Below are positions 1 to 22,732 of a DNA stretch of 25,189 bases, piece by piece. The notes under the pieces are model-generated. The model saw only the letters and a list, made by a program, of their open reading frames with translations, made no database searches and was not told where the DNA came from. The position numbers and the translations under genes were made by a program. The stretch comes from Lophium mytilinum (taxonomy: Eukaryota): positions 563,106-588,294 of the forward strand of contig MU004201.1 in the NCBI GenBank assembly GCA_010093605.1, read 5' to 3'. Position 1 is the stretch's first letter; every line of letters begins with the position of its first letter.

Positions 1-191
1 AACATTATCAAATATCTATAAAGCAGTCTCGCTCTAACAGGAGAGCACCTACTAAATGTCGTTAAAGTTAATACGTGTTGGAAGGAAAGGTGATTATTAA
101 GCTGAAAACCCTCCATATAACGGAATCCACCCCTAGCCGCGTAATATAGCTAATAAAGAAGCCGTTTCTCTTCCTGCAAACTAACTGGATT

Positions 192-893
192 TTAAATGCA
201 GGCCGTTGCGTCTAAATATACAGAAATGCACCTAAGTTTTCTACCGTGGTTGCTTGCTGTAGTGAATGTCCCAATCTAACAACCTCCCTCAATCGAACAG
301 TGGGCAATAATGGTGGGAAACCTCCTTAATGGTGAGCATCTAGTAATGAACTAAGTGAAACATGCTGTAGTGATAAAGAGCGAGTCTTGCATTGTGCATC
401 AAGGAGTGTTGTAGATGAATGCAGTAAGGAGCGTATTTTGATGAATGAATGGAGCATCCGTTGATGGCGGACGATGGCAATAGCGCGCGAAGGTGAAGAG
501 GAGCGATATCCTGTGGCGATAGCTGGCAGGAGCGTTGTAGTGGTGAATGGGTAAAGCGTCTAGTATCAGTGATGGCTAACAACCTGTGATGATGGCTGAT
601 ATCTTATAGTAATAGCTGGCATCCGTATGGCGATGGCTGTGCATCTAGGAATGCATCGAAGAAGCCATCTAGGAAAGCATGCTAATGATGCTGGGCGCGA
701 GGATCTGCTATTAACACCCTGCAGGAATGGTCGGACGACCTGAGGCTCATGGTAGCTTTGAATGAAGCCGGGCTTATTACCTATTAAATGCAGGCCATTG
801 CGTCTAATGTTAGGTGGAAGATAAGCTAATATACGGAAATGCACCCACGTTTGCTACCGTGATTACTCGCTATGGTGATTGACCTAATCTGAC
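192..893. repeat. Dispersed direct repeat of about 90-110 bp (192-280 and 784-893)
   Basis: TTAAATGCAGGCCRTTGCGTCTAA..AATATACRGAAATGCACC..CTACCGTG..AATCTRAC is present in both; the second copy has an insert of about 20 nt. Confidence 0.85.
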
Positions 894-914
894 ACCGGAG
901 CAACTCTTATACCT

Positions 915-1180
915 ACGCCGAGGGGCTCACTTGCACAATCTGCCTGGTACGACTAATTGTGATGGCAAGAGTCACGGTTTTCCTCCTGCAAGCTATGCTA
1001 AGGGGCTCCTCGCCCAAGCTGCCTGGCGTGGCTAATAAGCGCGTTCCTCTTCATCTAAACCAACCGGACAACTCTCACGTTAAAGCTGTCTAGCATAGCT
1101 TATAAGGAACGCATTTCTCCTCCTATAAACAATGCTGAGGGGCTCTTAGTCCAAGCCGCCGGCTTAGCTAATAATAACGA
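915..1180. repeat. Degenerate 68-80 bp tandem array, about 4 units
   Basis: AGGGGCTC....CAA.CYGCC.GG....CTAAT at 921, 1001 and 1138, with a more diverged unit at about 1070; TTYCTCYT recurs at unit ends. Confidence 0.65.
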
Positions 1181-2060
1181 GAATTCGGCTTCAATATTGC
1201 CCTGAACAACGTCCTTTACAACAATCTCCTAGAGACGGCGGCAACCTCCCACCCAATAAAAGAAGGCTGTCATACGCCCACCATAAGAAGGTCCTGTTTA
1301 TCATGAACGGCTAAGAACGTAGTTGGATGGCGTATATTTTAATTCAAGGACTATCTCTAAATAGTAAAGAGTTTACGGGCTACAGCTCTAGAACTTTCAG
1401 GGAATATAGTTTAGGCGATAAGGCCTTCGGATACCTTCTGCGCCATTGAGTGTAATAAAGTCGCATTTAATGGCCCCAACTCTTAATTCATGCCCTCTAT
1501 TGAGGCTCGCTGGGCAATCTCCTGGTCTAGCTGAGACTGGAGAGATAAAGCTCGAGCTTGAAATTCTTTACGTCGAGTGCGCCTAAGGATTGTCAGTGTT
1601 GCCTGCGTTGTGTTGACAGCCTATTGGAGTTATATATCAATATCTTCCGCATTACCTAGCTAGGGACCGTTGGCGTATTGAACGCATGGTAGATAATTAT
1701 GAGCCTCGCTATAAGAAGCTATCTGGATCTCGTTATCACGTTAGCCTGGAGCTCTAGGTCCTGCGGGTTGACGCTGTCTAGGACGGCCTTAATAAGGAAG
1801 CATCTCGCGGAAAGGATTAGCCAGCTCTGTTGTCGGTTAGTAGCGAGCGGCGAGCGCGAGGTAAGGCCTTCGGAGACCTCGCCCCGCTCCAGCTTAGATG
1901 ATTCCTCCAGCCTAGACTTCTTTAGGCGCTCCGCCTCTTTAAGAGCCCATATCGGTTTCGGCGACAATAGATGCGGATGAGAGGGCGTATGGGGTTGAGA
2001 TTTGGGCAAGGCAGATGGGGTTGCGGCGGCAGAAGGTGGACTAGAAGAGAGCGGTGGGTT
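1180..2060 (-). pseudogene. Possible degraded gene with a coiled-coil segment
   Basis: ORF 1719-2009, followed by a CTGAC..TAG acceptor at about 1585 and then RTRRKEFQARALSLQSQLDQEIAQRASIEGMN. No family recognised. Confidence 0.3.
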
Positions 2061-2264
2061 TCAAGCTGTTTAAGACAGCCTTAAGCTAGGTAAGCCTCTC
2101 GGTAATAAGGTTGTGAAATAGATTAGCGACAGCGACTGCGAATAAGAGAGTGTATAAAGTTTAAGATATACGCAACGTTTTATATATATAGTTATCGCTT
2201 AAAACATTAAGGGAGGTACTTATTGCGACCTTTATATAGAAGGACTATAACGCGAACCTTTAGT

Positions 2265-4400
2265 ATGCTGCCTAGCTATGCCTCCCCGATTATATTAAAG
2301 AGGGCAACGCGAACCCGCTCCACTCTAGCAAGATTGTTAATCGAAAAGATTATGGGGTATTTCAACAAAGCGGAAGAAGACTCGAGGATCTCGCAATCGG
2401 CGATGAGGCGGTACGATGCGCTCGTAAGAGAAGAGAAGGACTCCGTAGACGGAACAAAAGATGACCAGATAATGGATTGCTTGATTAATATAGTTGTTTT
2501 GCGGCGCACGCCGCATGGACGTCCAGCTAGAGTCTCCTCCAGCCACCCGGGCAGTTTACAAAAACTCTAGGAGTAGGTTCCAGACGTATACCAGCCACAA
2601 GAAAACCCGGTACTTAGAGCAAACCGAAGTATTCTAAGGGGAAAGTGCCTAATACTAGTATATGCCCGTTCCTCCCCTTTATGCATCTTCCTTGGCTGCA
2701 GCCATTACCTGTAGATACACGTGGTAATTCTCTAGTGCCTATAAGGCCCTAATGTATACTACAGCGCTTACTAGTATATACTGTAGGTAGTTAGCTAGCG
2801 GGTGTTCTTATAGATATTAGGATCATTAATATCTTACACTAAGGCGGCCTCTTCTCCCGTGCCTACTGGCCTAGGAGTGCTAAATCTGCTAAGACTGCGT
2901 GCGTGGATATAGCACAATCATGCCACCCACAGTTATGCCAACTAGTGTTAATCTTAACTGTAAGCATGTATTGCTGTCCCGTACGGTTAAGCCCTGTGCT
3001 GTTATTGGGTCCGGAAGGTTTATGCAGATCTAGGGAAACTGCAAGCTGCAGAACGCTGCATTACTAGGTACTGTACTTTCTTAGCATCTACCTAACAGTC
3101 TTAGATCCCTGATTTCAATGTCGCCGTAGTATTTGTGCCAATGTAATGGTTTCTCGCGATAAGGGTTGGTGTAAAGAGGCGCAAAACGCGTTTGCAAAAT
3201 CGGCTCCCTGGGGCAACATCGCGAATAACGTCCTAAACATGTCTAGAGACTTTCGTTAAAGCGATAGTTCTGCTTATTAGACCCCGACGAGCTAATTGCG
3301 GTTAGCTTTATTAATTGTTGCAATGTATGTTCGAATAGTTAGCTCGTTAGGTGTGTAGTGTTTTTTAAGATAACCATGCCAGGTTGCGGAGAACCCAGCA
3401 ATAACTGGAACATTATATGCTAAAAGGCCTCTAAGGGCAGTTAACTCCCTAAATATAAGAATGCTTGGAAGCCAGGCGGCTGCATAGGTGGTGGAAATCA
3501 ATTGTCGCAAGAAGGAAGAGGCAAGGAAGATGGGCCGGCGGTTAACCCTTAGACCTCCGCTCTACACCGGGTACCCCCGAGGTTTAGCCCTGTCTGTCTA
3601 TTGCTCGGGCCTTTCTAAACCTACCTCTACCTCCCCACACTCCCTGCGCAGGGTGTTAGGAAGGCCCGAATAGCTGCTTAACTCTAATCAGACGTCCGGA
3701 CTTACTCTCGAGGAGTCCGCCCAGGCGTTGCGGGGCTACGCATCGTATCGCACGCATAGCAAGGTCTCCGCCATCCTCACCCTCTATTATCTCAACTTCA
3801 AGTACGCTCAATAACCAGTCCTGCGCTTGCTCATATAAGCATTAGCGGACGCGACCTTACGCAGTATACCTATTATCCGGAACTAACTTGCAAATAAGAG
3901 GCTAATAGAGGCTGCAGGACTATTCGACAGCCTTGCGTATGTTAGCTAATACTAGAGAGTTAAAGCTTAAGAGATCTACTGCAAGGTAAAGGAGCTGCTA
4001 ATTAAGAAGGGCAATATATTAGATTAGCCGCATGCGATTTTAATACACCGAGACCTCGCTGCAGCTTTAACGATATATATAGTGGCTTGTACTACCCCCA
4101 GACTATCTATTACTACTTAGCAGCAGCGTTGTTGCGAACTGCCTGCGCCGCGTTAGAATACATAGCCCTCGGTCTACGTAACCCCGTCACCAACCGCCCA
4201 TTTTCCATCGCGTCGCAATTCCCGACTACTACCTTACGAAGCTTGCGGAGACTCGAGCAATAGCTAGAATATACTTGCCTATAGATCCTACCCGAACGAG
4301 CTATAATATCTGCTAAAAGACCTCTCTAGGCAATTGTCTCGCGCCCGCTAAGATAAGTATCGGCGGGGGCGACCTTCACTAGTACGCCCGCCACCCGGAG
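2265..4400 (+). pseudogene. Degraded gene of unknown product
   Basis: Open frame 2265-2570 (..EKIMGYFNKAEEDSRISQSAMRRYDALVREEK..), branch point/acceptor CTAAC..TAG at 3092-3104, and a protein-like frame from about 3488 onward (..LEESAQALRGYASYRTHSKVSAILTLYYLNFKY..) with TAA/TAG stops. Exon structure unresolved. Confidence 0.4.
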
Positions 4401-4577
4401 CCGAATCGCAATTAAAAGGCTAATGGAGGGGTTTCACTTTAAGAATCCGTAGCGAGTGTGATCTAATGAAAATTGCTAGCATTAGTGGTCTTTTCTAAAG
4501 AACGCTTGTATGCAGTTACAACAAAGCCTTAATGGCCGGTAAGAGTGCACGGGGGAGGAGAGTAGTAGGGGCTCACG

Positions 4578-4940
4578 TCGTAATGCTACACTTTGGAAGT
4601 CCGGAGCGGGAAGGGGGGAGAGGGGAAAGGGAAAAGGGCAGCGGGCCGCTCCCATTGTGATGCTGCCTGCACTTTAAGAGTCCGGAGTGGGAAGGGGGAG
4701 AGGGGGAAAGGGAAGCGGGCCACTTCTATTGTAATGCTGCACTTGGAGATTCCAAAGCAAAGAGGCCCCCGAGGAGAGGGGAAAAGGGAGAAGGGAGCGG
4801 GACGCTCCTATCGTGATGCTGCACTATAAGGTTCCGGAGCGGAGAGGGCGGAGAGGGAAAGGGGAGAGGGGAGCGGGCCGCTCGCATCGTGATGCTGCAC
4901 TTTAAGATTCCGGAGCGGAGAGGGGAGGGAGGGGAAAGGA
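4578..4940. repeat. Tandem array of five 74-82 bp units with a conserved core and G/A-rich tract
   Basis: Core TYGTRATGCTGCACTTTRAGRTTCCGGAGCGG at 4578, 4655, 4729, 4811 and 4887, each followed by GGG-run purine tracts. Confidence 0.9.
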
Positions 4941-5610
4941 AATGTTGTCCTTTGTTAGAACTATGTGGTCTTATTGGCGTATAACTTTGAATAGTTATAG
5001 TTGTGTTAGTTATTAAACGTGCTAATCGTAAAGATAATGTAATGGATTAGTGTTATATTTAAAGTCTTGTAAAGGAGTGCCGGCCTTACTATAGCACGGC
5101 GGTATAAGCCTCTACTAAGGGTGGTGAAATATTATTTAGATTATAAAAACTTTGCATTTATTACGCAGGAGATACTATGGTGGACGTGTAAGAGTTATAA
5201 TCTCCTACTAGCATATACTTGGGTAAGATCTAGTAATATAGGCTACGGATAGATGATGTAATGTGGAGATGACGCTGCATGTTAGCGCCAGGCCTATCCG
5301 GGGTTGGCGGCTGCACGGTCCAGTCTCGGGTTACACTACGTGCTTGTTTGCCTGTGGCATTTCCACCACAACTTTCTATATACTGTTGTGCTGTGGCCGG
5401 TAGCTATAGACTTTAGGTAGTGCGCAGGCGTTACGCGATAGTTTTATTAGTGTCTAATAGTTATATAAGCCTCACGTGCCGTAGCGGAAGTAACATGTTT
5501 ATTCTATCTCTAAATGGCGCAACTAATGGAAGGATAACCTAGTAAATGGAGTGCGATGGCTTTATTAGTTCGGGTTAGTTGGAGGTTAGAGGGTTTGGAT
5601 GTTTCATTGG

Positions 5611-5840
5611 ATGTTTTCTTTCCGTCTTGCCATGTTTTCTTTCCGTCTCGCTATGTTTTCTTTCCGTCTCGCCATGCGCTCATTTTGTGGCTCGCCATGC
5701 GCTCATTTCGTGGCTCGCCTCGCGCTTATTTCGTGGCTCGCCTCGCTCTCATTTTGTGGCTCGCCTCGCTCTCATTTCGTGGCTCGCCTCGCTCTCATTT
5801 CGTAGCGCCTCGCTCTTATTGCTCTCGCTCTCGTCTCTCC
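5611..5840. repeat. Compound minisatellite: three 21 bp units followed by about six 23 bp units
   Basis: ATGTTTTCTTTCCGTCTYGCY at 5611, 5632, 5653; then ..GCKCTCATTTYGTGGCTCGCC at 5674, 5697, 5720, 5743, 5766, 5789. Confidence 0.95.
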
Positions 5841-6111
5841 TACAGTTGCTCGCCGGTCTCCCTTCACCTAAGAGTTGCCGCTCTTCGTCACTCGTGTAAT
5901 GAGTCTCTCGGAACCCGAGCACTAACGGCCGTAGGCTTAGTATACAAAACAACACGTTAGTAGTTAGTAAACATCGCCAAGAAGAAGCGCGTTACCACGC
6001 ACGCTTTCTCCCTCTACGAGCCTCCCCCCACTTATGCAGCGCGAGCGGCAGCTATTAATATACTCCTTGTAAACCTCCTTATATCTGCACTAAGCCTCCA
6101 CTATTAACCTG

Positions 6112-7869
6112 ATGCAGAAACATTCCGCAATTACGCTTCCTACGACTCTCTTTTCTAATCCTCTTCCCGTCCCCAGCGCCGTCGGAACTAGACACCCGCC
6201 CCCGCAACAGTCTACCTTTTGGGCCGGAACTGTGACAGCATCTATAGGCCGTACATATACTTGTGGATGTGGTACAGTATTATCGCGCTCTAACCGATCT
6301 AGGCATCTCACACATCTTGAATGCCCTCGGGACGACAATCGTAGCTCCCCCAAGACACCCACGTATAAATGTAGCTGTAATAAAACTCTTAGTAGTTAAA
6401 ACTACCTTAGGAATAAACGCGGCAAGCACCGTGACTATTTATTTGTTAAAGTAGATCGCCGCCTTGCCATAACCGGACGAAGCTACAGGTGTAGATGTGG
6501 CGAAGTACTTAGTGTTACCTACAGGGCCAGACATCGCAAGGGCAGGCATTGTACGTGTCTAGACCCAGAGCGGTTAGGATTAGCCGCGGCCTTGGTGTTA
6601 GGTGGTAGTGCAAATTAAGAGGAGATCTAACGCGCGCATACTCTAGTATAGGCATCTATCGTGGACTACTCTAATAAAACTAACCCTAATTACTTTAAAG
6701 ATATTATAATTCTAATGCCGGACCTGGGCATGCACCCTACTGTCGCACACTGCCCTTTCTTTAAGCGCCGGCGGTTTTCCACCCTGCAGAAGCATCTGGG
6801 ACACGGTCTTGCATTTCTCCGCGTTGGCGTGCCTACTGTTTACTAAGCAATTACTATAATGGAGGTCCTAAGACCTAACTATCGCCGGCCGGTTGTCTAC
6901 AGGACACTATAATCACTCCTTGGCGACGAAGACTATCCGCCAGCATTCTATAAAGTAACTGACGAGGGCGCCTATAGTGCTATTGTTATAGTCGACTATA
7001 ATAGCGACCTTGCGTGCACTGTAAAGTTCCGACAACTCTCTAACTACGTGCAAAACTGGTCCACTGCCACCGGGCGCCGTTTGAGGCTTTTCCCCTCGAT
7101 TGCCGAAATGGAATGGAACAATGCCAAGGTCCACGATATTCTAGCTCTTAATAAGTTCGCGATGCAGGCTGCAAAGCTTGGAGACTGTAATTTAGGCTAC
7201 TGGCCTTAAACTTACTACAGCTATAACGGCGGATTATGTACCCTCTTGCGGCAAGCGTCTGTTCTCAAAGGTAGTTATAGTTTAGGATCGAACCATGTTT
7301 AATACCTTAAGCGCCGTCGCGACCCAAGGCTCCAGTGTAGATAGCGGGCAGACACTGTGTATAAGCGTTGCGAGAGTAGTGGTCTTAGACTTTATTTCTA
7401 TTAGGAAGCCGTCGCTACCTTTGCTAGCATCGGGGAGTTAAGGGTATTAATTGCCACGGTACCCAGCCTAAGTGGCTTGCGCGGCCGCGAAGCATGTGTT
7501 AAGAGCATTGTGCACACCAGCTTTAACAAGAAGAAGGTAGCCGTTACTCCGTTCCTCCCTGTAAGTGGCTGCGAGCCTTTCTAGGCACGTGCTGCTCCCC
7601 TTAACGTTGACAAGTTACGGGCCTATGCTCTTAGAGTGGTCAATTATCTTTAAAGTAGGGCAGATTGGAAAGCTTACTACGAGACCCTTAAAGTTGGAGT
7701 ACGATTAGATATTAGTATTTCGCCCGGGAAGAACCCCCGGTTTTTTGTAAACGAGATTACAAGATTTCAACAAGGGTGCTAGTTCTTAAGTTGCACTCCT
7801 TCGCCTCATCTTGGAGTAGTTAGTGCGTTTGCGAGAGCACTGCGCAATTATTTCCCTTCTCTTCCTTAA
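6112..7869 (+). pseudogene. RIP-inactivated gene: three N-terminal CxC zinc-finger-like motifs fused to an ATP-grasp-like domain
   Basis: One 586-codon frame with 13 internal stops, all TAA/TAG. YxCxC motifs at 6256, 6364 and 6484. ATP-grasp-like motifs in canonical order: VLKGSYSLGSNHV (7261), YFY*EAVATFASIGELRV (7393-7446), GVRLDISISPGKNPRFFVNEITR (7696-7764). The true start may be ATG 6034, and the end is uncertain. Confidence 0.75.
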
Positions 7870-8499
7870 CTAGGGCGAGTACGTGGCTCGCGCTACAACT
7901 CTGTTAGAAAGGTGGCAACAAAAGGGAAGGTTCTATGTGCTTGTATTCGGGGTGCATGTAGCGAGAGAGTTGGTGTGCACCGCGTGGGGGGCTGGCGTCC
8001 ATCTAGCCATGGACGTGACTTTTGGGTTTGGGGATTATAACTGCATTATTGGTAGTAAAGCAGTTACAACGTTAATGTAGTTATGTAACATGGAATATAT
8101 TAGATCCGAACCGCCGACCTTAGCATAGAATAGTGCCACGCTCAGGCCGCTGGTATTATCGCCCCTTACTTTCACCAAACTCGTCGGATAAATACCGAGA
8201 TCTCTTTTGTAGTAGTCTTCTTAGTCTCCTCTTTCTTAAGATGCATGGAATGGAAATCCGCAGCTAGGTTTAGCCCCGGGCAGTTCACCTCCTTAGAGCT
8301 AAGTTGTTAGCTGATCCCGATGCTATCCTCTATGGCTCTTTTCCTTTTGCGTAATTGGATATTCATGCTTCCTTAAACGTATACGCCCAGGCGAGGGCTA
8401 CAGATTGCGTTACCCCATCTCTAATGATACTCATTTATCGCTCCGGAGTCCCGATAACGACCTATGACCTGGAATGCCCTAGGCTCTTCTAGCATTCTA

Positions 8500-9480
8500 G
8501 ATTATTATTACGCGTAATTCCTTCCATTTCTATAACGTGCAGAACTATCGCATGCCCCGGTCTTTACAGTTAAGAATAAGCTATCCCTATCTATGCGATC
8601 CCACGTCTTATAGACTATGGAATCTTCAATTGCGATAGCGGAGACAACAATAGTGAATAACGGTTGAGAAAGTAGATTTGGTCGAGTGGGCGCGCCGATT
8701 AGAGACAACGGACGCTACCTAGCAAGAAGTTAGTTGGCTGCGTTGCTAGAAGACTATTTTACTGAGTAGTGCTCTATGTAGGCCAAAGGTTAGCTTTTAA
8801 ACTTAATAATGGAAAGAACGGAGGCTTACAGGGACCGGGCGTTTAATCCCGAGTGCTCCAACCTGGTTCATGGAGCAACCGTAGCCACGTTCTTCGGGGC
8901 CGTTAACGTAGATAATGAATTGTCTAAGGTAGTCTAATAGGGCTAGCAAGGACCTGCTACAAAACGTTGCTTCTGCTTCCCAGGCACTATTTTGGTAGAT
9001 CCCTAATCTTCTACGCCGGGGTGTAATTCTTCTATATGCGGTCTTTAGTAGAACTGCCCTAAGACTGTTAAGTTTAAGCTTCTGCAAGGGTGCGATAATA
9101 TGACTGTGTCTTTTAAAATATTAACCGTACTATCCAAAGAAAGCTAGACCGGATTCAAGCTTATAGAGCGTCTCTGGTAATCTTAGTTCTTAAATGCTTC
9201 CGCCCTTCCATAGTAACGTCCTACCTCCTTAACCAACGTTAGTGGACGGACACGACGAGTATGTGGTAAAAAAGATCGTCTAGCGTAGCCGTGGTTAAAT
9301 ATGCTTGCAAAGCTGCACTGTCTACTCCATCCCGTTAATACGTTCTAGGAATCTTTTCGAAGATGCGAGGGTTGCACTTGTTGCGGTTAAACGGGTTATA
9401 AAAGAAGCGGTCCTCCGCGCTTTCCCATCTATTGTCTTAACTAGGTCCATTCTTCCGCCCGCCGTCTCCGTTAGTGCCAT
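8500..9480 (-). mobile_element. Highly degenerate Ty3/Gypsy pol fragment (RT thumb/connector and RNase H)
   Basis: Minus-strand translation gives SI*ELRLPETLYKLESGLAFFG*YG*YFKRHSHIIAPLQKLK (RT thumb-like), LDYLRQFIIYVNGPEERGYGCSMNQVGALGIKRPV (like RNase H F.LYVD.S.E.G.GA.L.Q...ERPV) and, after a frameshift, YRNGRNYA (like HRPGR.HANAD). No YxDD, integrase or LTR recognised. Confidence 0.7.
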
Positions 9481-10114
9481 AGAGCTGTTGAGTGGATGTA
9501 AGATAATAAAAGCTACGTCTAGAAGTAAAGGTAGCTAGTCGGCTTGCTAGAAGACTGTTTCATTAATTACAGCTCCCGAAGTAGGCAGAAGTTAGATCTT
9601 ATACTTGAGATACGAAAACACGGAAGCTTCCCCGCGGGCTTGTTACCTCCCGTCACCGTGAGCGCCGAGTGCAGCGTCCTCGTGGCCCCATGCTCCCCCG
9701 GCCTATAGTTATCTTTATCTTGCGGTCTAGCAGTAATGCCCCCCAACATCTCAATCCTATATAGGTTTACGGCATGCACGCTGCTAACGAAACAGTCTTT
9801 TATACAGGGGGCTAGGAGGCCTTTTCCACGCTCTTAGAGTTTTTTGCGGTTGTGCTAGATCCTTCTTACTGGTCTTTAGCTTCTTCGGAATAAGAATCCT
9901 GGTGATGACGATGAAAGATAAGGATAAGGAAGATAGACAAGGTGTCGGGAGCTATGCCGCGCAATTTATGGTGTTTGTTAGCGTAACATAGAGACGGCGT
10001 ATGGGCATTTAAGAACGCCTGCACTAATGGTGGAGCTTGGAGACACGGTTGTTTTATGCCTTAAGAACACATTAAAGGCGGATATAACACCGGAGCGAAT
10101 GGAGTTGCACGGGA

Positions 10115-10297
10115 GAGAAGGGAGAGTGTTCCTATCCCTGGGAGCATAGATTGATATTGCGTGGATGCTAAGGGAGGGATTAGGGGGGGGAGGGGAGAGG
10201 AGAGTGTTTCTATCTTTGGGAGTATAGAGTGATGTTGCATAGACGCTAAGGGAGGGATTAGACGAGGTTAGAGAGGGGAAAGGGTTTCTATCCCTGT
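10115..10297. repeat. 78 bp tandem repeat, about 2.3 copies
   Basis: GTTYCTATCYYTG at 10128, 10206 and 10284; GCTAAGGGAGGGATTAG occurs twice. Confidence 0.85.
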
Positions 10298-10329
10298 ATG
10301 ACACGCGATGTATAGAAGGGCGTGCATGA

Positions 10330-13300
10330 GAAAGCCTAGGGGTAACAGGGCAAGTACTACGGTTTGAACACGCAAAAAGCCTCTATATGCGGTGGCTATA
10401 ATATCTTGGATCTAAGAATATAGGTGCCGCTTCAGGACCACTAAATTCTAGCAGAGCGCAGTGGCGTCTTAGAAAGACTGCTTTTATCTTCGACTATAAA
10501 CCAGGGGACCGCAGTGGTAGGGAAGCTCTTGTAGCTTTAATATTTGTAGCGGAAGGGGGAATCGCGTGGATAAGAAGATAGTATATAAGGCTACAGATTG
10601 AAGGCTTTATAGGTAGGATTTGCACGGTAAGGTAGAGCATGGAGGCATATCTGACGACTACCAACTAGGTTAGGAATTACCGTAGTAGAGGACTTGCATT
10701 CTAGCATGTAAAAGTAAATTTACTAGCCAGTTAAGGAAGGCTTTAAGGCACCCCAGGCGGCGGCACTATTTTAGAAGGCCCGGCCTTTTTCTTCTATATT
10801 TAATATGCGAAGCTACATCTAGGCATTTAGCTTTGGGCTTTATTTTAGAATGGTAAAATGAATGTTTTGCACATACAAACTTGGGTATTGAGGCACGCCT
10901 AGCAGCGCGATATATTTAGAAGAGCTGCTCTTCTTCTGCTCTTATTTATAAAGCCCTATTATAACCTTTGTGTCGCAGGACTTATATTAGCTTCGCTGGC
11001 AGGGGACTTGCGTGGTTGGACTAGCCCTTGAGCTACTTGCCAGGTCACAGAAGATGGGATATCAAGCATTAACTTAGAGCTCCCAACTCTTAGGGAAGCC
11101 ATCTACTTTAGCTTCTATTAGGCTGAAAGGTATGTTTTCTAGATTAAGAGAGACCACTCTAAAGCAGTGCCAGACGGCCTTAAACATCTTATTTAACTTT
11201 TCACTCTTCCATCTTACTTTATAAGACACGCCAAGATAAGCTTATAGAAATTTAATAGCAATATTAACTCACCACAGATTTCCTATATTAACTTTCCGTA
11301 GTTCCGTCCCAGACGCCTTCCGATCTACTGCACGAACAGTGTAGCGTTTTACCGCAGTCTACATTAGTCAAAAAAAAGGAAGGCAGTAAGATAAGACTCT
11401 ATCGCTAAAGATGACAATGACTCCGATAGTTCGGGGCCTAACAATAACACCGATTGCTACAAAGACTTCCTTCCGGGTCGCCTTTCATGGGATGAATTTG
11501 TCTGTTCTCTTCGAATTAAGCAAGAAGAATCTCCTCTTGTCGCCAACCTTCTTGGTGAGTGTGCTGGCGTTCGCTATCCGGAGGCAGTAGCGATGGGGGA
11601 GGTGGGATAGAGGAGGAACTGGATAGTTTTTCTTCTAGATTCAACAGGTGGGTTCTATGAGATGTTTGAGGTCGCTAATTAGAGACTGGCAGGATAGGTT
11701 GAGTAGTGGGTGGGAGGTCGTGCTTAGTGGTATAGTAAGAGGAGGGAGGAGAGGGAGGTTAAAGGATCTTGAGCTCTAAGAGCGAGCGCAGGAAGACCTC
11801 TCGCCCAGTGCTGGACTTTCTAAGAAGAAGACGCCTTGTTACAGTACGCATCTAGGTCTGGCAAGACGGGGACAAGGGCATTCCGATTTCAAGCTAGTTA
11901 TAGTAAGAGTATTCCAATGCAAGCTAAGTATGGCCGGAGATGAAGAGAGATAAAATAGCTCTAAATCCAACGTTGAGAACGTAGCAGCGACGCTAATAAT
12001 AAGTAAGTATGTCTTTACAGCTTTTCTAATTAAAGTTTTAAGTACCTCATTCCGTTTCGAACCTAGGGCGTGGAGCATAGTAATAGCGTGGTGGGACTAT
12101 TAGACATTTGTAATATTTCTAGAGACTCCTATAAGCATACGCGCTAATTAGCTACCGCGCTAGGTACAAGGAGTTCCGACTCGCCCACCCGCTTTGCAAG
12201 ATTAGAGCTGGGCACTTCTAACTTAATAATGAGGCTTAGGTCGCCCGTTCCTTCTATGGTTGGCAAGTTAGTTTCATGCAGCTTGGCGGTTGCATATATG
12301 TTTTCGTCGGTCTCCCGTCGGTCTCCTTGGTTTCGCCACGACGAGCTTATTTGGGTCTAAATTCGTTAGCAGATAGATTGGTGATTAAGGCCACTAAAGG
12401 CGTAGAATTAAGGGCCTGCAGGTTCTTCGGGTGCTTAATGCCGTGGATTCTAGTTAGCGTCTACTTTCTCATGGGAAGAGAAAACCAGAGAAGTGTACCT
12501 TTGCGGGTCCTCCCTTCCTCTTTAGATGTGGAGTTGATTTTGCTGGAAATAAAGAAGGGGCGAAGGCGTATGGTAACGCATGAGAGCATATGGTCTGCTT
12601 CATGCCCTTATAGCATTTAGTTTAGTCTTTTTTAGAGGCTCGGCATTAGCCAATCCATCGTTCAGGCCTCTTAATGTTAGTTAAGTCCCCTAGTTAACGT
12701 CCATTATACTTGCATTACTGCTGGAGTTGCTCTTCGGTTGAATACTAGAGTCTCCAGCATTAGGATTATCTCCTAAGGAGTGGTCATCTACTTGCATTAC
12801 GGTATCTACATCTATGGGCTCAACCCTAGCATCTTCTCGCTCTACGATATCCTTGCTTTAAAGGACAGCGTTATACCTTAGCCGTACTGCAATGGCATCC
12901 CCTTTAAACTCTCTGTAGTCTCGCGCGGCCGTATTAAGCAATTGGGTAGCACTATCTGCACTCTTAGGTGTCTCCTCGCAATCTCGAGTAGTTTCTAAGC
13001 TTCCTTAACAACGCAATTAGCGGCCTACACTAGTGCATCATCGGCTCTCTCTTTAGGCACTTACTCCGTAACTACTTGTTCCCGGTGAAACGTCCAGCAT
13101 ATCTTAATCCATCTCCGGCTCGTGCATGCGTGCGTGTTGTGTGGCATTGTTGCCGGCATCTTAATATCGTGTGGCTATAAAGTTAGTTGCTGGCACAATT
13201 GCGCCGGCGCTATAGTTGATCGGCCTCTTCGGGACCTTCTTTATGGTAGCCTGTTAGTATCTTACAAGTACTCTCTCTTTAAAGTCTCCTAGTGTTTAAT

Positions 13301-13343
13301 GTTGCTTCTGTAAGAGGTCTGAATTAATGTAGTTAATTGACAT
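10330..13343 (-). pseudogene. Degraded gene or genes of unknown product
   Basis: ATG at 13343 opens a long, low-complexity, protein-like frame interrupted mostly by TAA/TAG. Intron-like segment at about 10877-10819 (GTATGT..GCTAAA..TAG) and a donor GTGAGT at about 11272. No family motif recognised; boundaries approximate. Confidence 0.4.
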
Positions 13344-13539
13344 GCAAATGGCAATAGGGACTTAGCCTAGCGCACGGCTGGTGTTAAGGGCAGTGGAAGG
13401 TATGGTAGGAGTAGCAGTTACTTAAGGATAATACGATGTAGTGTTCTGTTAATAAGGCGCATGCATTAAGCCTATATAGCTAAGTTACCCCAGCCGTAAT
13501 TAAATATCACCAGTCCGGCCCGTTCGAGGAAGATGAGAC

Positions 13540-14427
13540 ATTAGTGAGCCTCCTCCGCCTGCTCTCCGTAGAGAGAGTCCCTTAGGTCCCACCTATGTCT
13601 ACTAGGAACCACGCCTCGCCCTTAGGAGGAGTCCATAGGAGCCAAGCCTTCGCAGTCCCTAAAGAGAACCAAAAGACATTAAGAGCCCCATCCACCGCCT
13701 CTCTCTTAAGTAGTTCACGACACCTCCGACGTCTCTAGTTAAGCCTATTTAAGAAAGCCTTTATAACTTGTTCAAGGACTTCGGCATGGAACTCTTTGAT
13801 TATTCGGGTTGTCGTCTTCTAGTAGGAATCTGTGCGGTATTTAAACAAGCGACCATGCTTATTGGTGTAATATTCCTAACTCGTCTAAGGTATTAAATAT
13901 TAACTTGTATTTGTGGCTCCTGCAAGGCCATAGCCGGAAGCCTCCCTCTCCCAGCCCAAAGGTCTTTAAAGTACGGTGAGTCTTATGCGACATCCGAGTA
14001 TATCGATTGTTATCGTGTGCTGTGTCGTGTGCTGCGTTGTGTGGTTATTCCTTAGGGCGCATTATTGATAGGTGTTAAAGTTAACTGCCTCCAGAGGCAT
14101 AATATTAAGGAGGGGGGCGGGAGGGGATTTAGAGGATACGTCTCTGCGTATACGTCTCTGCGTTGGCCCGTAAAGACGGGAAGACGTATAGATTTCCTAC
14201 CGACACTACGAGGAGGTGCAGAGTCCGATTTCACCGCATATTTGCTCGACGGCTCTAACCAGGGTATATCATCGTGCGCGCAGCACGATCTCGAGATGAA
14301 GATTATAACGGACTTCACGTCATTCGACAACAACGCGCCGTACGAGTTGCTAAGACGCACTTGGGGTGGTCGTCTTGAATGCAGTAGATTTGCTTCGTGG
14401 TTTCGGGCCTATGCGCTATTAGCTTGA
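13540..14427 (+). pseudogene. Possible degraded gene of unknown product
   Basis: The frame of ORF 14065-14427 extends upstream about 500 nt through TAA/TAG stops only, and ends at TGA. Confidence 0.3.
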
Positions 14428-14809
14428 GTCCTCTACCACGGGTGAAGCGTCCACGTACCTGGGAGAAAATAATCCGTCGCCTCCTAAAAGCCCCGTCAGA
14501 TTATAAGACTGCCTATAGATATTACTAAGCTCTTACTATTACCGGCGCATCTACTCCTACCACATTGTCCTCCTTGATTAACAGCTCCCTCGCCTTGTAG
14601 CAGAGCTCTTTTACTTGGCTCCCTGGTATTAGCCAACATGTGCAAGGTTGGCGAATCGCCCCAGATTAAGAAGGGAGCGAGTGAGAACGTTCCTACCACG
14701 ACGTATGTCGACTAAACCGGCCTTAGAATTAGGAACCAAGGGTAAGCGTTTGTGGCATATTTCTCAAGACTCTTAATAGATAAGCAGCGGTTTAAGTATC
14801 TAGTTTATG

Positions 14810-16215
14810 CTATTTCATTTAAAGCAATATTCGATTCTTCGTCTATACTCTATTGTTAGAGTTGGGCATCTACTTCTTCTTCTTCTCTGTCACCGTCTGC
14901 GTCTTGTCTTGTCCTTCGCTTCAGCCGAGCCGTCTTGCTGTGTCGCGATGGCTTACCAGAATTTCACCAGCCGTTCTTTCCCCTCCGAATACGGCGTCTT
15001 CCTTACGCGGCTTCTATCTCTACTTGTGCAGAGCAGCCGCTGCAAGAAGAGCTCTTCGCCCCATAATTGGTGCGTTTCTAATTCCTCCCTTATTTACATA
15101 ATCGCGCGACAACTCCATCGCGTACTGTGGTTGTATACTATAGTTAGTGCAGCGGCGGTAGGGATATGTTGGGTACGTTTAACTTGTTGTAAGGGATAAA
15201 TTGTTTGGAGAGAGAATGTAATATAGATGTAGATACCCCCAAGAGCGCTCTTTAAGACTTTTATTACTTAAGTGGGAGGGTCCGTTTAACGAGGATGGTT
15301 CGGGAGCTTGGGTGTCTGGCCTGGCCCATGTTGGGCTTGTAGTTGTTAGCGCAATTAGAATAGGGCGCAGGGAGAAGGTGCTTGCCCTTCTCGTTATTAC
15401 TCGAGCTCAAGACGCGTGTAGAGCCTCAGGATCCGAAGGGCTAAGCTACCTCGATAGCTGTATTGTAGCCCAGCGAGGAGTAAGTATAGGTTGAGTCACG
15501 GCACTCTTCTGCGCCGCAGTACGTTACGTCGAACTTTAATTTCCCACGCCTCTCGCCTTTTCTTCACAACCCGCAGATCTATTTCCTATCGTCCCATCTC
15601 ACCGCCTATTATATCCTCTTTGAATTTAAGTCCAAAAACTTACGAAATCGGCCCTAAGAAAACAAATCCAAGATAAGCGCACGGAACCTGAGCGGGACGG
15701 GAACATCGAGGCAATGCCCCATTGACAGTATCTGTAGCGCATTCGCAGTTGTAGATAATAGGGGGGTATAGTGCGGTTAAATGGCGGGGGCCTGGATAGA
15801 ATTGTGGGTGTAACGGTAGGCTAGACGCGCCGCGGTGGAGCTCCGAGGATGACGAGAGAGCGGGGTGTAGCGTTGGGGATACTCTTCTAGGTCTGCGCAA
15901 GCTTGACGAAGAAGGTTTACTAGGCAGCGAAGATGTTGTCGTTGGCGCCGAGGCAAGACATGATGCCGTCGATAGGGGCCAGGCGTCGCAATACTGCCTT
16001 AGCGCTTTCTTCGATGTATTTGTAGGTGGAATGGGTAGAGAAGGGCTTATAGTGTTTTCAGCGTCTGCATGGGACTAGAGGTGCAGTAGGCTGGAGGCAT
16101 TGCGATGGGAGGTGCAGCTGGAGGCATCGCAATGGGAGGTGCAGCTGGAGGCATCGCGATTGCGATTAGGCCCTGTCGTAGGGCATCGCAGGTGGGATTA
16201 ATGGAGCGGAGGCAT
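14810..16215 (-). pseudogene. Possible degraded gene of unknown product
   Basis: ATG at about 16215 starts a Ser/Pro-rich frame that includes ORF 15640-15900 and continues with scattered stops. No motif recognised. Confidence 0.25.
16090..16160. repeat. 27 bp tandem repeat, about 2.6 copies
   Basis: GCTGGAGGCATYGCRATGGGAGGTGCA at 16090, 16117 and 16144. Confidence 0.9.
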
Positions 16216-16860: not shown

Positions 16861-18378
16861 ATGCAGTTTAATAACTCTCCTTCTACGCCGGCCTCGGAAG
16901 ATCGCATCTCCTTATGTGTTGAATTGGTGCGCGAATACTACCCTACACCGCCCCTCGAAGAACAAAGACCCTTGAAGCGGCGTCGCGCCATGTCCCTCCC
17001 GCGCGCCCTTTAGCACCGCAATTGCAGCCTAAAGCGACCAAGGATGGACAACAACGAAGAGGACCTCGGCCTAAAACCTGAACAGAGTGTGTCGCAGATT
17101 GGAATCAATCCGCTTGCGTTGAACTAAACGAACAGATTTAACTTAGCCGTTAGTGGTATTTCCGCCAACGGCACGAAACGTCCATTAAGCCCAACGCGCG
17201 AAGTATCTGTTTAACTTAAAGGCGCATCGCCGTCAGTGCACACGGATGACCTGGTATATCCAGGGAACACCTATTAGAGCAAGTCTTTTAACTCAGTAAA
17301 CGGCTTTCGAAGGGCTTTACTTCCGGATTCATTCCACCTTGTTTGAAAGTACGTGTGCATACCCACGAGACGTTTTGATTGGACTAACGTGTGTCTAGAA
17401 AGTGATCGAAAATGACACTATGCTGGGCCCTCAACTATTACTAGATATCGACCCCGAAGATTATAAGATAGATTCCACCCGCAACGTTGCTGAGGCGTTT
17501 ACTATATGGAAGGAAGTTAAGAGCATCTTTCTCGACGCGCATATATGCAAGATTGACGGTCAAGATAAGAATGCGTGGTGTAGCCATGTGGTTAAGCCGC
17601 TTCTTCGGCTAGTCATAGCTATATACGGCAAGGAGAAATGGAAGTACTACAGCGTGTACGCATCTTCCTCTTAATAATTGTTAAATAGTAGCTAACCAAA
17701 CTATTTGTCTAGGCAAACGCAGTCCATTAATTATAAGTACCTCTCTACGACTACGACTGGCCCCCTTGGCTATCCTAAACCCTTCGATCGCAAGACTAAC
17801 TACGCTTTCTTGTACTTGAAAGCAAACTCTACACACTCTAGACTCTACGACAAGGCTTTTAGGAAAAAATGGAAATTGGGCACACAACTAATACGTCCTT
17901 AAAGCGGATTGCCCTCTTTTCTAGTATTGAGGTCCAACCGCGATTAGGGGATAATACAGAGGCTGAGGTCCAGATGAGCGTATGGATCGCTGCGTCGTTA
18001 CGCAAGAAGCGAGAGCTCGCTTAGCTTGCGAAGAAATCCTGCAAGCCCGGAGTTATTGTGGAGCCCGCTTTTACGATTGTTGGACATGTCCATACCGTCT
18101 TTTATGCGTATTTGCGCTCGGCCACCCCATCTAATAATGGTGTTGCTGTCCCAGGTGCAGACAAACTGTTGGGTGATGACGAGTGTAGGGAGGATGTGCA
18201 TACCCTTAGAGACACGTCTGCTCGGCTTACTTCGTTGAAAACAGATTCTATTCGTGGAGTCTTTCAGTGGCTTAGATTGTACGGGAACGTATTGGAGTAT
18301 GGGATGGATGAGGGGAAGACCGGGTATTGGGGACGGTTCCTTGGGCCTGTGCTAGAGAAGCTGGCTGCTGACTCGTAA
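16861..18378 (+). pseudogene. Fungal PD-(D/E)xK nuclease-like gene (PDDEXK_12-type), disrupted
   Basis: ATG at 16861; introns 17349-17398 (GTACGT..CTAAC..TAG) and 17656-17712 (GTACGC..CTAAC..TAG). Motifs: GFIPPCLK, DKNAWCSHVVKPLL, RKTNY, SSIEVQP..G...EAEVQMSVWIAA, EPAFTIVGH. Carries TAA/TAG stops plus two frameshifts (about 17250-17280, and the A-run at about 17864). Confidence 0.8.
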
Positions 18379-18429
18379 CTTGTGCTTCCATAGAACGCTT
18401 TCTTTACTTAGGCTGTAGACTCTATATCT

Positions 18430-19080
18430 ATTAGTATGAACAGTATTTTAGTATGAACAGTACGTCTCCAACAATATAAACTGTGCTTCTGCAGCACTAT
18501 CGATATGCCCTTCGATGCCATGTTAATGCTCGGGAGCGGACTCTAACTTTATTGATGCTTCGCGTTCACGATCCTCTAGATGGAACGAAAATTAGATGTT
18601 AAAACAATATAGCTCCTACATTGATATGAACAGCTTCTACATGATATAAACGGTACGTCTGCAATACTATTAACATGCCCCTTACTGCCATATTAACGCT
18701 CAAGAGCGCACTCCAACTTAATCGACGCTTCGCGTTCACGATCCCCTAGAAGGAACGACACTCCCGGTTACAGCACTCTCTAAAGCTGCTTCAGGCATTA
18801 AATAACGTAACGATATAGCTCCTACAACAATGGGAACGGTATTACGATTAGTGTGTCTACATTGGTAGAATGAGTGCTACTACAATGCTATCCATCTACC
18901 CTTCTTTGCTATGTTAATTCGAAGTGGACTCTAAATCAATGCTTTGCGTTCACGATCTCCCGCAAGGAACTCGCCCCCAGGTTAGGCCACTCGCTGAAGA
19001 CAATCTAGGCATTAAAACGACACAGCTCCTACTCCCCTAGAAAGAAAGAAAATTCCCGATCACAGCACCCTTTAATGACG
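18430..19080. repeat. Three diverged 170-215 bp tandem units between convergent genes
   Basis: GCTTYGCGTTCACGATC at about 18557, 18727 and 18941; AGCTCCTAC at about 18611, 18817 and 19024; shared upstream block ATGCCCYT..TGCCATRTTAAYGCTC. Confidence 0.85.
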
Positions 19081-19295
19081 ATCTAGACATGGAAAGAAAT
19101 AACACCGCCAAAGACCCTTGGTTCCTGCATTCTGGAAACAGCCTCGAGTGCCGTAGGTATTATACCGTTTCGAGCATCGCCAAGTGGAGAAGGAAGGAAA
19201 AGATAACGCCATGATCTTAACCGGGTGCTGTTATGCTTAATAGAGACAGCGAGCGGGCTCCAGGCACCTAACAATTGCCGAAGGAACTGATGCGA

Positions 19296-22200
19296 TCATC
19301 GCGTTTGCCGAACCTGTCTTCGGCCCCCTCGTGTGGATGAAGGGGTTGGAAGGGATTGCTTAGGGTGATGAGCGGTTGACGAGACCCCGGGTTTAAGTTT
19401 GAGTCTGCGAATCTGTTTCCGTTTTGGGGACTTATCTTTAGCATTAGCGTCGACCTCAGCTCTCCCCCTTTTTAAGCTGACGCTATTGCTAGACGATATA
19501 CTAGGAGTTTAAGGGGTCGGAAGGGATTGCTCGGGGTAATGGGCAGTTGACGGGACCACGGGCTTCGGGAGCTTCTTGGGCTGTTTCGGTTTTGGTGGTT
19601 TATCTTTAGCATTGGCGTTAATCTTATCTCTCCTCTTTAAGCTGACGCCATTCCTAGACGATACACCAGGAGTTTGAGGGGTTGGAAGGGATTGCTCGGG
19701 GTAATGGGCAGTTGACGGGACCACGGGCTTAGGAAGAGGCGTGTGCTGTTGCTGGTTTGGCAGTTCATCTTTGGCTTAGGCTTCGGCCTCGTCTCTCCCC
19801 TGTCTTAGGTTGACGCCCATCTTAGGCGATACCTCCCGAATTAGCGCTTCCAATGTTGGAAATACTTGGAGCGGAGCCTTCCCCTTTGGCTAAAGCTATT
19901 TCGCAATCGCTTTGCAATCAATTGCGCTTATACGTGCGAGGTCGGGGCGAAGAATATCGAACCATCGCACGAAATAGTCTCGCTGACCTTTACTTATACC
20001 TTGATACCTTTAAATAGTTAGTGCAACCTTCTAATAATGGGAGACATGACTTACTCGGAGGGTTGTATGGGACGCTTAAGTCGTGTTAAATTACCCGGGC
20101 CGGATGTGACCCTTAGGTTCATATCAACGTTTTCTACTGTGGTGCTGGGAAGAATAAATAACACCTAAACCCTAAGGCGCGAGCACAGCGTATTAAGAAT
20201 GGCGCCGTAGTTTACATACATCTGTAACCTTGATTTTCTGCTCCTCTTAAGTTTCGGATGACTATCTATGGCTTCGTAGGCCCGAGTGGCGGCGGTTTTT
20301 CTGTAACCGGTTTTCAGTTTCTCCTCTTTTATTGCACTTCTCTCCTTGATTGTTAAATGTTTGTCACGCTGTCTAGCCTGCTTTATATCCTTACTTATGC
20401 TCTTCTCCAATTGGACGAATTCGTGAGCAATTCTAAGATATAGAATACGCTTTTTTAGTGTACCTATATAATGTTTATTCTTAACTACTTTAAGCTCGCG
20501 AAGACATCTTAATATGGAGTCCGTGGGCGAAGTATCGTCGGGTTTATTAATCTAGCTGATGGGCGTCTAGCTTAGGCAATTTAGCGTCCGGTCAGCGGTG
20601 CACTGCAGAATTAACTGGAGTGTTCGTGCTTTCCAAACTTCGTCTAGCTTCGGGAAATAGTGTCCTGCATCGTTGAACGCCTCCAGAAGGGCGTTTCTTC
20701 CCGGCTTATCGAATTTATAGACGCTGCTGCACTTGAAAGTATACTAACCACTAGTTACAGTGCGGCACTCTCGAGGTGCTTGCGAGAAATCTTCTTCCGT
20801 TTCGAGGGTTGATAGGTTGATGGATGCCTCTATGGCCAGAGCGTCGGCAAATTAGTAGGAGCCGGGGGGGCGGTTAAAAAGGTACGCTCTCTAGGTAGGA
20901 GCCACACATGTTCGGTAGAGCCAAGTAATGTATTAAGTCCTAAGCGTTTGTGACTCTATTTTTGTGTAGAGCCTAAGATAGCGCTCTATATTATAGTAGC
21001 ATAAGAGAGTATAGAATGCACTATCGGCATTATGGCCGGACTGGAAGAGATAATATTAGATAAGATGACCGCCGGTTCTTGGAAGTTACAGCAACTTACC
21101 GACTTCCTACGACATTGGATCGTTTTCTTGCTCCCGCGTTTTACGAGCTCTAACTGGAACGCGTCCTTCCATTTTAGTGCCGGACCTTCGTTAATACCGA
21201 ATGCCCAAAATTCCCCACGTTACTAATCGGCGATAGCAACAACCTAATGATCCTTCTCTAGTTTCTCGCTTGTTTGGTTATTTGATGGGACATGAAATGG
21301 CAATATAAGGCCGTTATAAGACTCTAGGTTAATGTTCTCCTAAAAAACAAGCTCTGCTTTATTGATGTTGGCTTTAGTGGAGTCGACAACTTTTAGACGA
21401 CGACCATTGTAGATGCCGCTTAGAAGCATTATAAGAAGGCTATTATCCAGCTGTCCTCCTAGAAGAAATCGTTGAAGTCTCCGTTCTAAGTTAGCCGCGT
21501 TTGAATAATTGAACCACGGTGGGGGAACGTTATAGGCGATGAATGCCTTGATTAGACGAGCGATGTTTTTATCTTCTGAACCTTTAGAGATTGGTATATA
21601 GGCGGGGGCGATATATAGCGCCAAGTCCTTGTCGTCTAATATCTTGATTGGCGCTGGAGCTTTGCTCTTAGAGATTTTAAAACGATTGCCTGTTAACAGA
21701 TTTTTGCCGCAGGGGGTTTTTATGCCTTTCTTGCTAGGTTTATCGCCTTCCTTGCTAGGCCTGCACCATCGGTAATCCTCTGGCGTGTCCGGCCATAATG
21801 GGTCCTCAAAATTCATAGAGACAGTAAAATTCTCGCCGGCATTGAGAACCTGGTGGTAGGTCTTAGGTAGGGTTACCATCATCTATCCCGCGGACTGTTC
21901 GATAATGGTGTAATCAATGTCCCACTCCTTTAGGAGTTCCGGCTTAAGAAGGACGTCGAGATGTCGGACAAATTGGAAACAGAAGGAATTCGACTTCTCA
22001 AGCTCGAAAAGGGTCTTTAGTTTCTCCTTAAGATCTTTCTGTGCACTAGGAGGGACAAGCAGCTAGACCTTAGGTGCCCCCACGACTAGTAGATTAACCG
22101 AACTAGTGTATCCATCTTCTAGGTGCATACTGGCTGGCGTACTAGAGTATCTACTAACATACCAATACGGGATGTTGATACCAGGGAGATTGCCCTTAAA

Positions 22201-22638
22201 TCTTCGGCGGAGTTTCTCTCCTGCGTGTATAAGAGAAGTAACAGAATAAGTTCCTAATTTAGGGCTATAGTAGTACGGTAGGCGGTCTAGAGGTAGGTTG
22301 TTGATAGTTTTGTTAAAGAAGTCTTTAGGATTAAGTGCAGGCTTATCCTAAGGAGTAGGGTATTTGTTTGGAAATATAAAAGGTTTTTCTTCGGTGACGT
22401 ATGTGTGGACGAAGCCATTATTGCGGTTAGATGCGAAGCGAAGGGCTGTGACTTCGCGACATTTGCGTGGTGTTTTAGCCGGTATGCCATCCGGCTTAAT
22501 CCGGGGGAGATCATCAACAGTGAATACCATGAAGCCGAATTTACTGGCGGCTCCGTTAGTTTTGGCCTTTATTGTAGCTACCATGTTCTGTCCTAGATCT
22601 TTCACCTTGCATGTGCGATGGTAAATTGGTAGGGGATC
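19296..22638 (-). pseudogene. RIP-inactivated KDM4/Rph1-type JmjC histone demethylase-like multidomain gene (JmjN-like + JmjC + Ulp1/C48-like + C-terminal repeats); start codon not identified
   Basis: Exons 22638-21100, 21040-20055 and 20007-19296 join in frame across introns 21099-21041 (GTAAGT..CTAAT..CAG) and 20054-20008 (GTAAGT..CTAAC..AAG), ending at TGA 19298-19296. JmjC motifs: PGINIPYWY, MHLEDG (His at 22125-22123), SVNLLVVGAPKV*LLVPP, CFQFVRH, EQSAG*MMVTLPKTYHQVLNAGENFTVSMNF. About 18 internal stops, all TAA/TAG; no frameshift needed. Confidence 0.9.
19340..19835 (-). repeat. Three coding repeats of 165-171 bp (55-57 aa) at the C-terminus of the JmjC gene
   Basis: AGGGATTGCT at 19351, 19522 and 19687; translated unit KPVVPSTAHYPEQSLPTP..GVSLKR..ANAKDK. 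Confidence 0.9.
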
Positions 22639-22647
22639 CTAACCGTA

Positions 22648-22732
22648 ATGACAACGGTAGCTAGTAATAATATTATTACTAGTGTCATCGGGTAACGGTA
22701 GTAAACAACGGTAGTAAACAACGGTAGTAATA
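22648..22732. repeat. Perfect 22 bp palindrome with flanking inverted hexamer, followed by three 13 bp direct repeats
   Basis: CTAGTAATAATATTATTACTAG at 22661-22682, flanked by ATGACA (22648) and TGTCAT (22683); AACGGTAGTAAAC-type units at 22694, 22707 and 22720. Confidence 0.85.

Follow-up and report, generated by a model that had tools for sequence, protein, structure and literature searches.

What kind of DNA once carried the dead genes found in one stretch of the Lophium mytilinum genome is the question raised by this locus. The window, that is the whole stretch analysed, comprises 25,189 nucleotides at C21:563106-588294, where C21 is contig MU004201.1 in a genome of 43.4 Mb and 49 contigs (labelled C1, C2 and so on); coordinates without a contig label are those of the window. 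A preliminary description, made from the letters of the window, had taken positions 1-22650 as cargo of a multicopy giant element, such as a Starship, killed by repeat-induced point mutation (RIP). The analysis revealed that RIP did cause the gene damage and that the giant-element reading is not supported. The block is probably part of a degenerating accessory (B-like) chromosome, C21, with captured scraps of other genes and RIP.

The in-frame stops of the three window pseudogenes, namely the JmjC, the ATP-grasp-family and the PD-(D/E)xK nuclease gene, number 13, 12 and 5 respectively. All 30 are TAA or TAG and none is TGA (P = 5e-6, assuming one third TGA), and the frames can be read through them, in accordance with the earlier description; of the 42 listed open frames of 80 or more codons in the window none exceeds 180 codons. 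The direction of change was obtained from 41 alignments of C21 pieces with other contigs. T or A stands on C21 for C or G at 882 positions (490 C>T and 392 G>A, both strands), the reverse at 382, and 474 changes are transversions. The change rate by dinucleotide was highest for CpA (0.30), followed by CpG (0.21), CpC (0.12) and CpT (0.095). The machinery is also present, as three PF00145 (DNA methyltransferase) loci with long open frames were found on C4 and C9, which by architecture would be RID, DIM-2 and DNMT5. Sequencing error was considered as a source of the damage and rejected: contigs of the sequencing runs X1 and X2, which may be the window's own source, match it with 0 differences in the listed pieces.

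The RIP-dead state spans the whole of contig C21, so the limits drawn earlier for the block are not biological. In C21 the RIP index was positive in 62 of 62 bins; among the samples of other contigs it ranged from -0.34 to -0.62 in 12 out of 13, the sole non-negative sample being an AT-rich repeat. Samples of 12 other contigs, 106 kb in all, contain 28 frames of 250 or more codons, whereas the 614 kb of C21 have only 9. RIP was related to distance from a mask of second copies on C21 and AT-rich DNA. The TpA/ApT ratio was 1.68 within 250 bp of the mask, 1.36 at 0.5-2 kb and 1.21-1.25 on a plateau beyond 4 kb; it was 1.21 in the 62 kb located 16 kb or more from mapped repeats, whereas the core samples gave 0.73 overall and 0.84 outside open reading frames. 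This gradient, ending in a plateau above the core, therefore indicates leakage plus a baseline. Single-copy genes riddled with stops, as well as scraps with RIP asymmetries of 36:3 and 20:5, lie in an 88.7-kb run of C21 in which no repeat was mapped. Leakage into a single-copy block, with RIP decaying away from the AT-rich edges, had been named beforehand as the outcome that would overturn the giant element. The block does occur as a single copy. Away from those edges, however, RIP stays above the core level, so leakage alone does not explain the damage.

C21 measures 614,441 bp and its right end, 26 kb right of the window, consists of TTAGGG repeats; no telomere repeats were seen at the left end. 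An internal tract of seven CCCTAA repeats at C21:222422-222463 (222.4 kb) is possibly a fusion point or an old chromosome end. As much as 57% of the contig is masked as repeat or AT-rich and no whole housekeeping gene was found, so that C21 is small, gene-poor and repeat-rich in the manner of an accessory chromosome. The accessory status proposed at the outset was supported, and so was the chromatin and nucleic-acid flavour, the latter by the JmjC and nuclease genes in the window and an Scm3-like gene elsewhere on C21. Depth was taken from assembled contigs of X1 and X2 (two runs of one sample, possibly the assembly's source, and the only listed runs that contain the stretch, with no RNA run among them), contigs being assigned to C21 or core by their matches. 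The median depth in X1 was 58 for C21 contigs (n=5) and 135 for core contigs (n=6), a ratio of 0.43, and in X2 it was 82 (n=6) and 161 (n=7), a ratio of 0.51, with the tool's own caution that depth is no copy number. This gap of about twofold is a hint that C21 is absent from about half of the nuclei. Run X3, from another sample and probably RNA, covers only parts common to core contigs and is uninformative on expression or absence. Near the right end, an OrsD (PF12013) domain lies in a long AT-rich open frame inside RIPed DNA (C21:592403-594226); such a domain occurs in telomere-linked helicase genes. A second long AT-rich open frame inside RIPed DNA is at C21:23750-26248.

The other main feature of C21 is its mosaic of gene scraps. 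Leaving out three repeat families, 19 pieces of 84-417 bp in the window match other contigs and make up 3,881 of 22,650 bp (17%). The earlier remark that no housekeeping gene is recognisable has accordingly to be narrowed to whole genes, since these pieces include MSH6-, phosphatase-, Mbp1- and Swi5-like genes. The donors supported by Pfam matches include a gene of the MutS family, a calcineurin-like phosphatase gene, an ankyrin and a C2H2 transcription-factor gene and a gene with a BTB domain, the first four of which we take to be MSH6-like, PPG1-like, Mbp1-like and Swi5/Ace2-like, respectively. Retroposition as the source of the scraps was rejected because they keep introns.

Two 10-kb C21 loci left of the window were searched against the genome for scraps; one row per scrap was kept, and rows for additional copies of a multicopy piece or for pieces outside the tracts were dropped (11 of 31 and 23 of 39 rows). 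The tract at C21:513948-517085, 50 kb from the window, is composed of 20 scraps that come from 12 contigs. These measure 36-337 bp (median 112) and show 70-100% identity, and 9 of the 19 joints between them lie within 6 bp, against 2.5 by random placement (P = 1e-4). The tract at C21:493106-497718 contains 16 scraps with 3 of 15 joints within 6 bp (P = 0.02). Scraps were traced as well to the genes for histone H4 and POT1, to a DIM-2-like methyltransferase gene (in two places) and to genes for an ankyrin protein, another methyltransferase and a hydrolase. Among 26 scraps with known donor strand, 11 are sense on the plus strand and 15 on the minus strand. Flush joints, kept introns and mixed orientation are as expected of end-joining capture. 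The traffic also ran outward, for pieces of the JmjC gene occur on C2 and C13, the C13 piece lying 3 bp from a piece that matches C21:490 kb. That scraps of about 110 bp, originating in a dozen contigs, lie flush in tracts and moved in both directions points to break repair. Such tracts give a base-resolution view of how accessory chromosomes become 'amalgams' of core genes, which has been open since the Zymoseptoria genome. No publication describing such flush tracts for accessory chromosomes of fungi came up in the literature search; the cited sources were available in part, and Figures S5-S8 of PMC3111534 may hold finer detail.

Some donors recur. MSH6-like pieces lie in at least five places, namely C21:368.5, 460.2-461.1 and 517.0-518.0 kb and, in the window, 10092-10296 and 15829-15985. 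Pieces of the DIM-2-like methyltransferase gene of C9 are present at C21:454343-454773 and 468892-469622 and were found because that locus was fetched for other reasons; no pieces of the other two methyltransferase loci were found on C21. A patchwork at C13:116.6-121.8 kb has pieces matching four C21 places, including the JmjC gene, and an X3 contig spans part of it.

The following course of events would account for these observations. C21 would be dispensable, occurring in about half the nuclei or at half dosage, for which the support is moderate. It carried accessory genes (JmjC, nuclease, two ATP-grasp and Scm3-like), whose remains are seen among transposon relics. End joining would have mended breaks and, in doing so, taken up series of 36-450 bp scraps from across the genome, a putative mechanism for a pattern directly seen; scraps of C21 genes would likewise have reached core contigs, and inversions and tandem copying would have come later. 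The whole chromosome, single-copy genes too, would then have undergone the RIP that is observed, triggered most simply by two copies per nucleus before meiosis, through disomy or a large duplication since lost, and repeat leakage would have added to it within about 1 kb. Under little selection nearly all genes would have died, a few including the Scm3-like gene resisting stops.

Several points weigh against this reconstruction. The left telomere is absent, so C21 may be an arm of a larger chromosome. The depth gap comes from assembled contigs of one sample, assigned by match and giving no copy number, and a single strain is concerned; the disomy is inferred, not observed. The CpG change rate nearly equals that of CpA, so methylation-driven deamination contributes to the changes. 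Transposon relics with copies on other contigs sit inside the 'distant' class and could leak RIP. The joint spacing was derived from BLAST end points, not donor flanks. Complex insertions at yeast double-strand breaks resemble C21 in that short pieces of unrelated loci are end-joined, but in the part of the source available they join 2-4 pieces, mostly mitochondrial or Ty, in laboratory assays, not the up to 20 nuclear pieces seen here in a natural genome (PMC11372161).

The window could instead be cargo of a multicopy Starship or other giant element whose captain has been lost. Orphan and nucleic-acid-enzyme genes in an accessory region would suit this, and captain-less 'derelict' Starships, which like C21 have accessory genes in RIP-affected accessory regions, are described in the part of 10.1101/2021.12.13.472469 available. 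In contrast to Starships, C21 showed no captain, auxiliary genes, termini or second copy. A self-search of the genome and of C21 revealed no sister copy, the longest outside match being a repeat of 634 bp. DUF3435 gave 0 matches in the whole genome with 2 candidates scored, although the control genomes yielded no positive and a heavily RIPed captain could escape. None of the Starship auxiliary families DUF3723, ferric reductase (FRE), patatin (PLP) and NLR, three or more of which would mark a degraded Starship, had a Pfam match in 30 window frames and 81 C21 segments (49 + 32, picked by codon score where C21 is richer in GC and in part inside the window). The segments matched transposon domains, MutS_V, OrsD and Scm3 and, weakly, a few other families. 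Terminal inverted repeats in the window or in four 10-kb loci did not exceed chance level and none was convincing. The conserved module suggested earlier did not emerge either, as 0 of 13 metagenome loci bearing an ATP-grasp relative (contigs of 1-11 kb) share another gene with C21, and the dead state covers the whole contig. A giant element is hence improbable.

A stronger contender retains the same chromosome and explains RIP of single-copy DNA by leakage from dense, partly unrecognised repeats together with heterochromatic C>T change, with no duplication of the whole. The clear TpA/ApT gradient near repeats, the CpG change rate of 0.21 and the relics of hAT, Tc1-like DDE, Copia- and Gypsy-type elements within the GC-richer block agree with it, as does Chr14 of Cladosporium fulvum, where RIP in 24% of unmasked bases is read as leakage by the authors in the portion of PMC9453070 at hand. 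The TpA/ApT plateau from 4 to 16 kb and more, and the dead genes and asymmetric scraps of the 88.7-kb run, are however not expected from leakage, and this account is possible but doubtful. The snippet tracts, for their part, might have been built by a transposon (a Helitron, Pack-type or telomere-linked element) and not by host end joining; capture of this kind usually yields gene scraps with introns, and transduplication is known in a Dothideomycete from a source seen in part. The tracts are nevertheless single-copy, of mixed orientation and without inverted termini around them, and Helitron_like_N (PF14214) gave 0 candidates genome-wide, with an uninformative control that leaves absence unproven; transposon capture is unlikely. 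C21 could also be the repeat-rich distal arm of a core chromosome, with half depth arising from library or replication bias and scraps from subtelomeric repair. The single telomere, the OrsD/DUF3505-type frame near the tip and the similar patchwork at C13:116-122 kb agree with such an arm, and blast-fungus chromosome ends capture internal sequence in repair, according to a partly available source. It fits poorly with 614 kb almost without genes, with a twofold depth gap in both runs at 47% vs 52% GC and with a size like that of known accessory chromosomes (mean 576 kb in PMC3111534 and 460 kb in PMC9453070, as far as those texts were available), which makes it quite unlikely.

The favoured reading, a degenerating accessory chromosome, has relatives among known systems, which are compared here on the available parts of the sources. 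In Zymoseptoria tritici, accessory chromosomes are known to be amalgams of core genes (PMC3111534), disomy of such chromosomes followed by RIP has been proposed in the same species (PMC3681731), and a 145-kb duplication is RIPed in Neurospora (PMC4478554). The Z. tritici dispensome keeps about 80 genes per chromosome and C21 almost none; joints of flush 36-350 bp scraps are not described in the available part of PMC3111534, and dispensability is shown there but only presumed for C21. Chr14 and Chr15 of C. fulvum are, like C21, mini-chromosomes rich in repeats, with RIP in their single-copy DNA and with copies of core genes turned into pseudogenes by RIP, but their copied blocks are of 0.9-8.6 kb with whole genes, in contrast to the tiny multi-donor scraps and the dead unique genes of C21 (PMC9453070, PMC10823647). 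Plant and animal B chromosomes share with C21 the mosaic of A-chromosome fragments and the irregular dosage; they have no RIP, and drive is not shown for C21 (PMC9846793). The model of disomy followed by RIP finds a natural test in a single-copy contig RIPed along its whole length. Follow-up is merited by the snippet tracts and the Scm3-like gene, not by a giant element.

The Scm3 domain (PF10384, CENP-A-binding) was found outside the window in a 284-codon frame at C21:433608-434714 on the minus strand, with E 3e-8, above the curated cut-off. Past one TAA the frame is open for another 84 codons with a Myb-like lead only (scores under 0.9); Atlas clusters link Scm3 with Myb in ascomycetes. The silent-site RIP index of the gene (0.56) equals that of the JmjC gene and exceeds that of the core (0.34), internal repeats raising this index. 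It has 1 stop vs 26 remaining Q or W codons, compared with 40 vs 72 in four dead genes (P = 7e-4, for a gene chosen post hoc from about 40 segments). The single stop may already have crippled it. A protein search for relatives, covering 202-646 residues, returned the identical record only. The gene is a candidate self-maintenance gene of C21. As a long shot, C21 could be a selfish B-like chromosome kept by its own CENP-A loader as the rest dies and snippets are repeatedly captured, and the unpaired arrays might bring about trans silencing of genes for genome defence and repair at meiosis; the latter idea comes from the donors, which include DIM-2-like, MSH6-like, POT1 and histone H4 genes, some of them with pieces at several sites.

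The pseudogenes and other features of the window are summarized in Table 1. The JmjC and PD-(D/E)xK assignments made at first sight were confirmed by Pfam matches. The Ulp1-like part of the JmjC gene was not: four sequence comparisons gave no match, the fold model was unusable (predicted local distance difference test score, pLDDT, 32), and the resemblance to Ulp1 (Peptidase C48, His-Asp-Cys), noticed solely by eye, lacks the Cys at its expected position. Six relatives of the JmjC gene were found (31-38% identical), and within the genome there are only two distant JmjC genes. The JmjC gene and its isolated scrap on C2 differ by 26 substitutions, of which 21 are RIP-type changes (C>T or G>A) on the window side and 2 on that of the scrap, so pairing between these two did not cause the damage. 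The nuclease gene has a diverged paralogue on C15 with an open last exon.

The ATP-grasp gene belongs to an unnamed family of 140 relatives and has a distant paralogue at C21:506.4-507.5 kb. No Pfam or PDB sequence match was obtained for it. The model of an intact relative, P0007 (46-47% identical, pLDDT 87), matches the ATP-grasp ligases LysX/ArgX, RimK, Ddl and ITPK1 with E ~1e-6, and on this model the family is predicted to have the ATP-grasp fold. Of the two parts in the initial 'ZnF-ATP-grasp' label the second thus stands, and the zinc finger is weak (C2H2 match with E 0.004 in 1 of 8 relatives). At 5 of the 12 stops of the ATP-grasp gene, 10-13 of 13 relatives have Q or W, which is not so at the remaining 7. 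Three of the 13 metagenome loci have in common a convergent gene downstream, which C21 lacks. Tandem arrays are present between the genes, as had been described.

Table 1. Features located in the window
Positions	Strand	Feature	Details
1-22650	none	RIP-eroded, moderately GC-rich island between two AT-rich repeat blocks	45-50% GC
215-900	none	Dispersed repeat	many copies on other contigs, 69-87% identical
1107-1963	none	Four scraps	match C1, C6 (twice), C15
2503-3300	none	Pieces of a family	copies on C1, C6, C7, C15
3817-4015	+	Second, more RIP-damaged copy of part of the phosphatase scrap	40 RIP-direction changes vs 5 reverse
4016-4432	+	5' piece of calcineurin-like phosphatase gene of C11	intron kept
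4433-14664	none	10.2-kb segment inverted after capture	ends split phosphatase scrap cleanly, 1 shared base
4600-4939	none	76-bp tandem array	4.4 copies
5611-5839	none	21- and 23-bp tandem arrays	
6196-7875	+	ATP-grasp-family pseudogene, Cys/His-rich N-terminus	12 stops in 418 codons counted
8882-9223	-	Repeat piece, AT-rich RIPed copies on C1, C6, C9	Gypsy pol-like by eye, no Pfam match
9681-9884	-	Scraps of C9 orphan gene and C11 gene	C11 gene nucleoporin-like by eye
10092-10296	+	78-bp array	built from 3' end of MutS-family gene of C2
10304-10514	+	Scrap of ankyrin transcription-factor gene of C1	intron kept
10559-10778	+	Scrap from start of BTB-domain gene of C1	
11057-11460	+	Two scraps of a C2 locus	locus also has pieces at C21:486.9 and 511.4 kb
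12177-12522	-	Scrap of unnamed C14 gene	
12694-13311	none	Repeat piece	AT-rich copies on C2, C13 and others
13462-14351	+	Two scraps of C2H2 transcription-factor gene of C9	
14408-14665	-	Phosphatase-gene scrap continued beyond inversion	
15829-15985	-	MutS_V scrap of MutS-family (MSH6-like) gene	MutS_V Pfam match
16861-18378	+	PD-(D/E)xK nuclease pseudogene	PF20516 (PDDEXK_12, E 1.5e-13, 6e-8); two introns; 5 stops in 419 codons
18452-18758	none	Direct repeat	173-bp spacing
19340-19832	none	165-171-bp tandem repeats	
20192-22581	-	JmjC pseudogene, long C-terminal part	PF02373, E 2e-18; 13 stops in 774 codons
20593-21155	-	Parts of JmjC gene recurring on core contigs C13, C2	isolated 271-bp and 314-bp scraps
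22651-25189	none	AT-rich, heavily RIPed repeat DNA	

Elsewhere on C21, a stop-free frame of 292 codons at C21:474526-475401 (minus strand) showed a high silent RIP index (0.64) and no Pfam match. SNF2-like and PHD-like motifs were noticed, by eye only and with no Pfam match, in dead frames at C21:369-371 kb and 381-382 kb.

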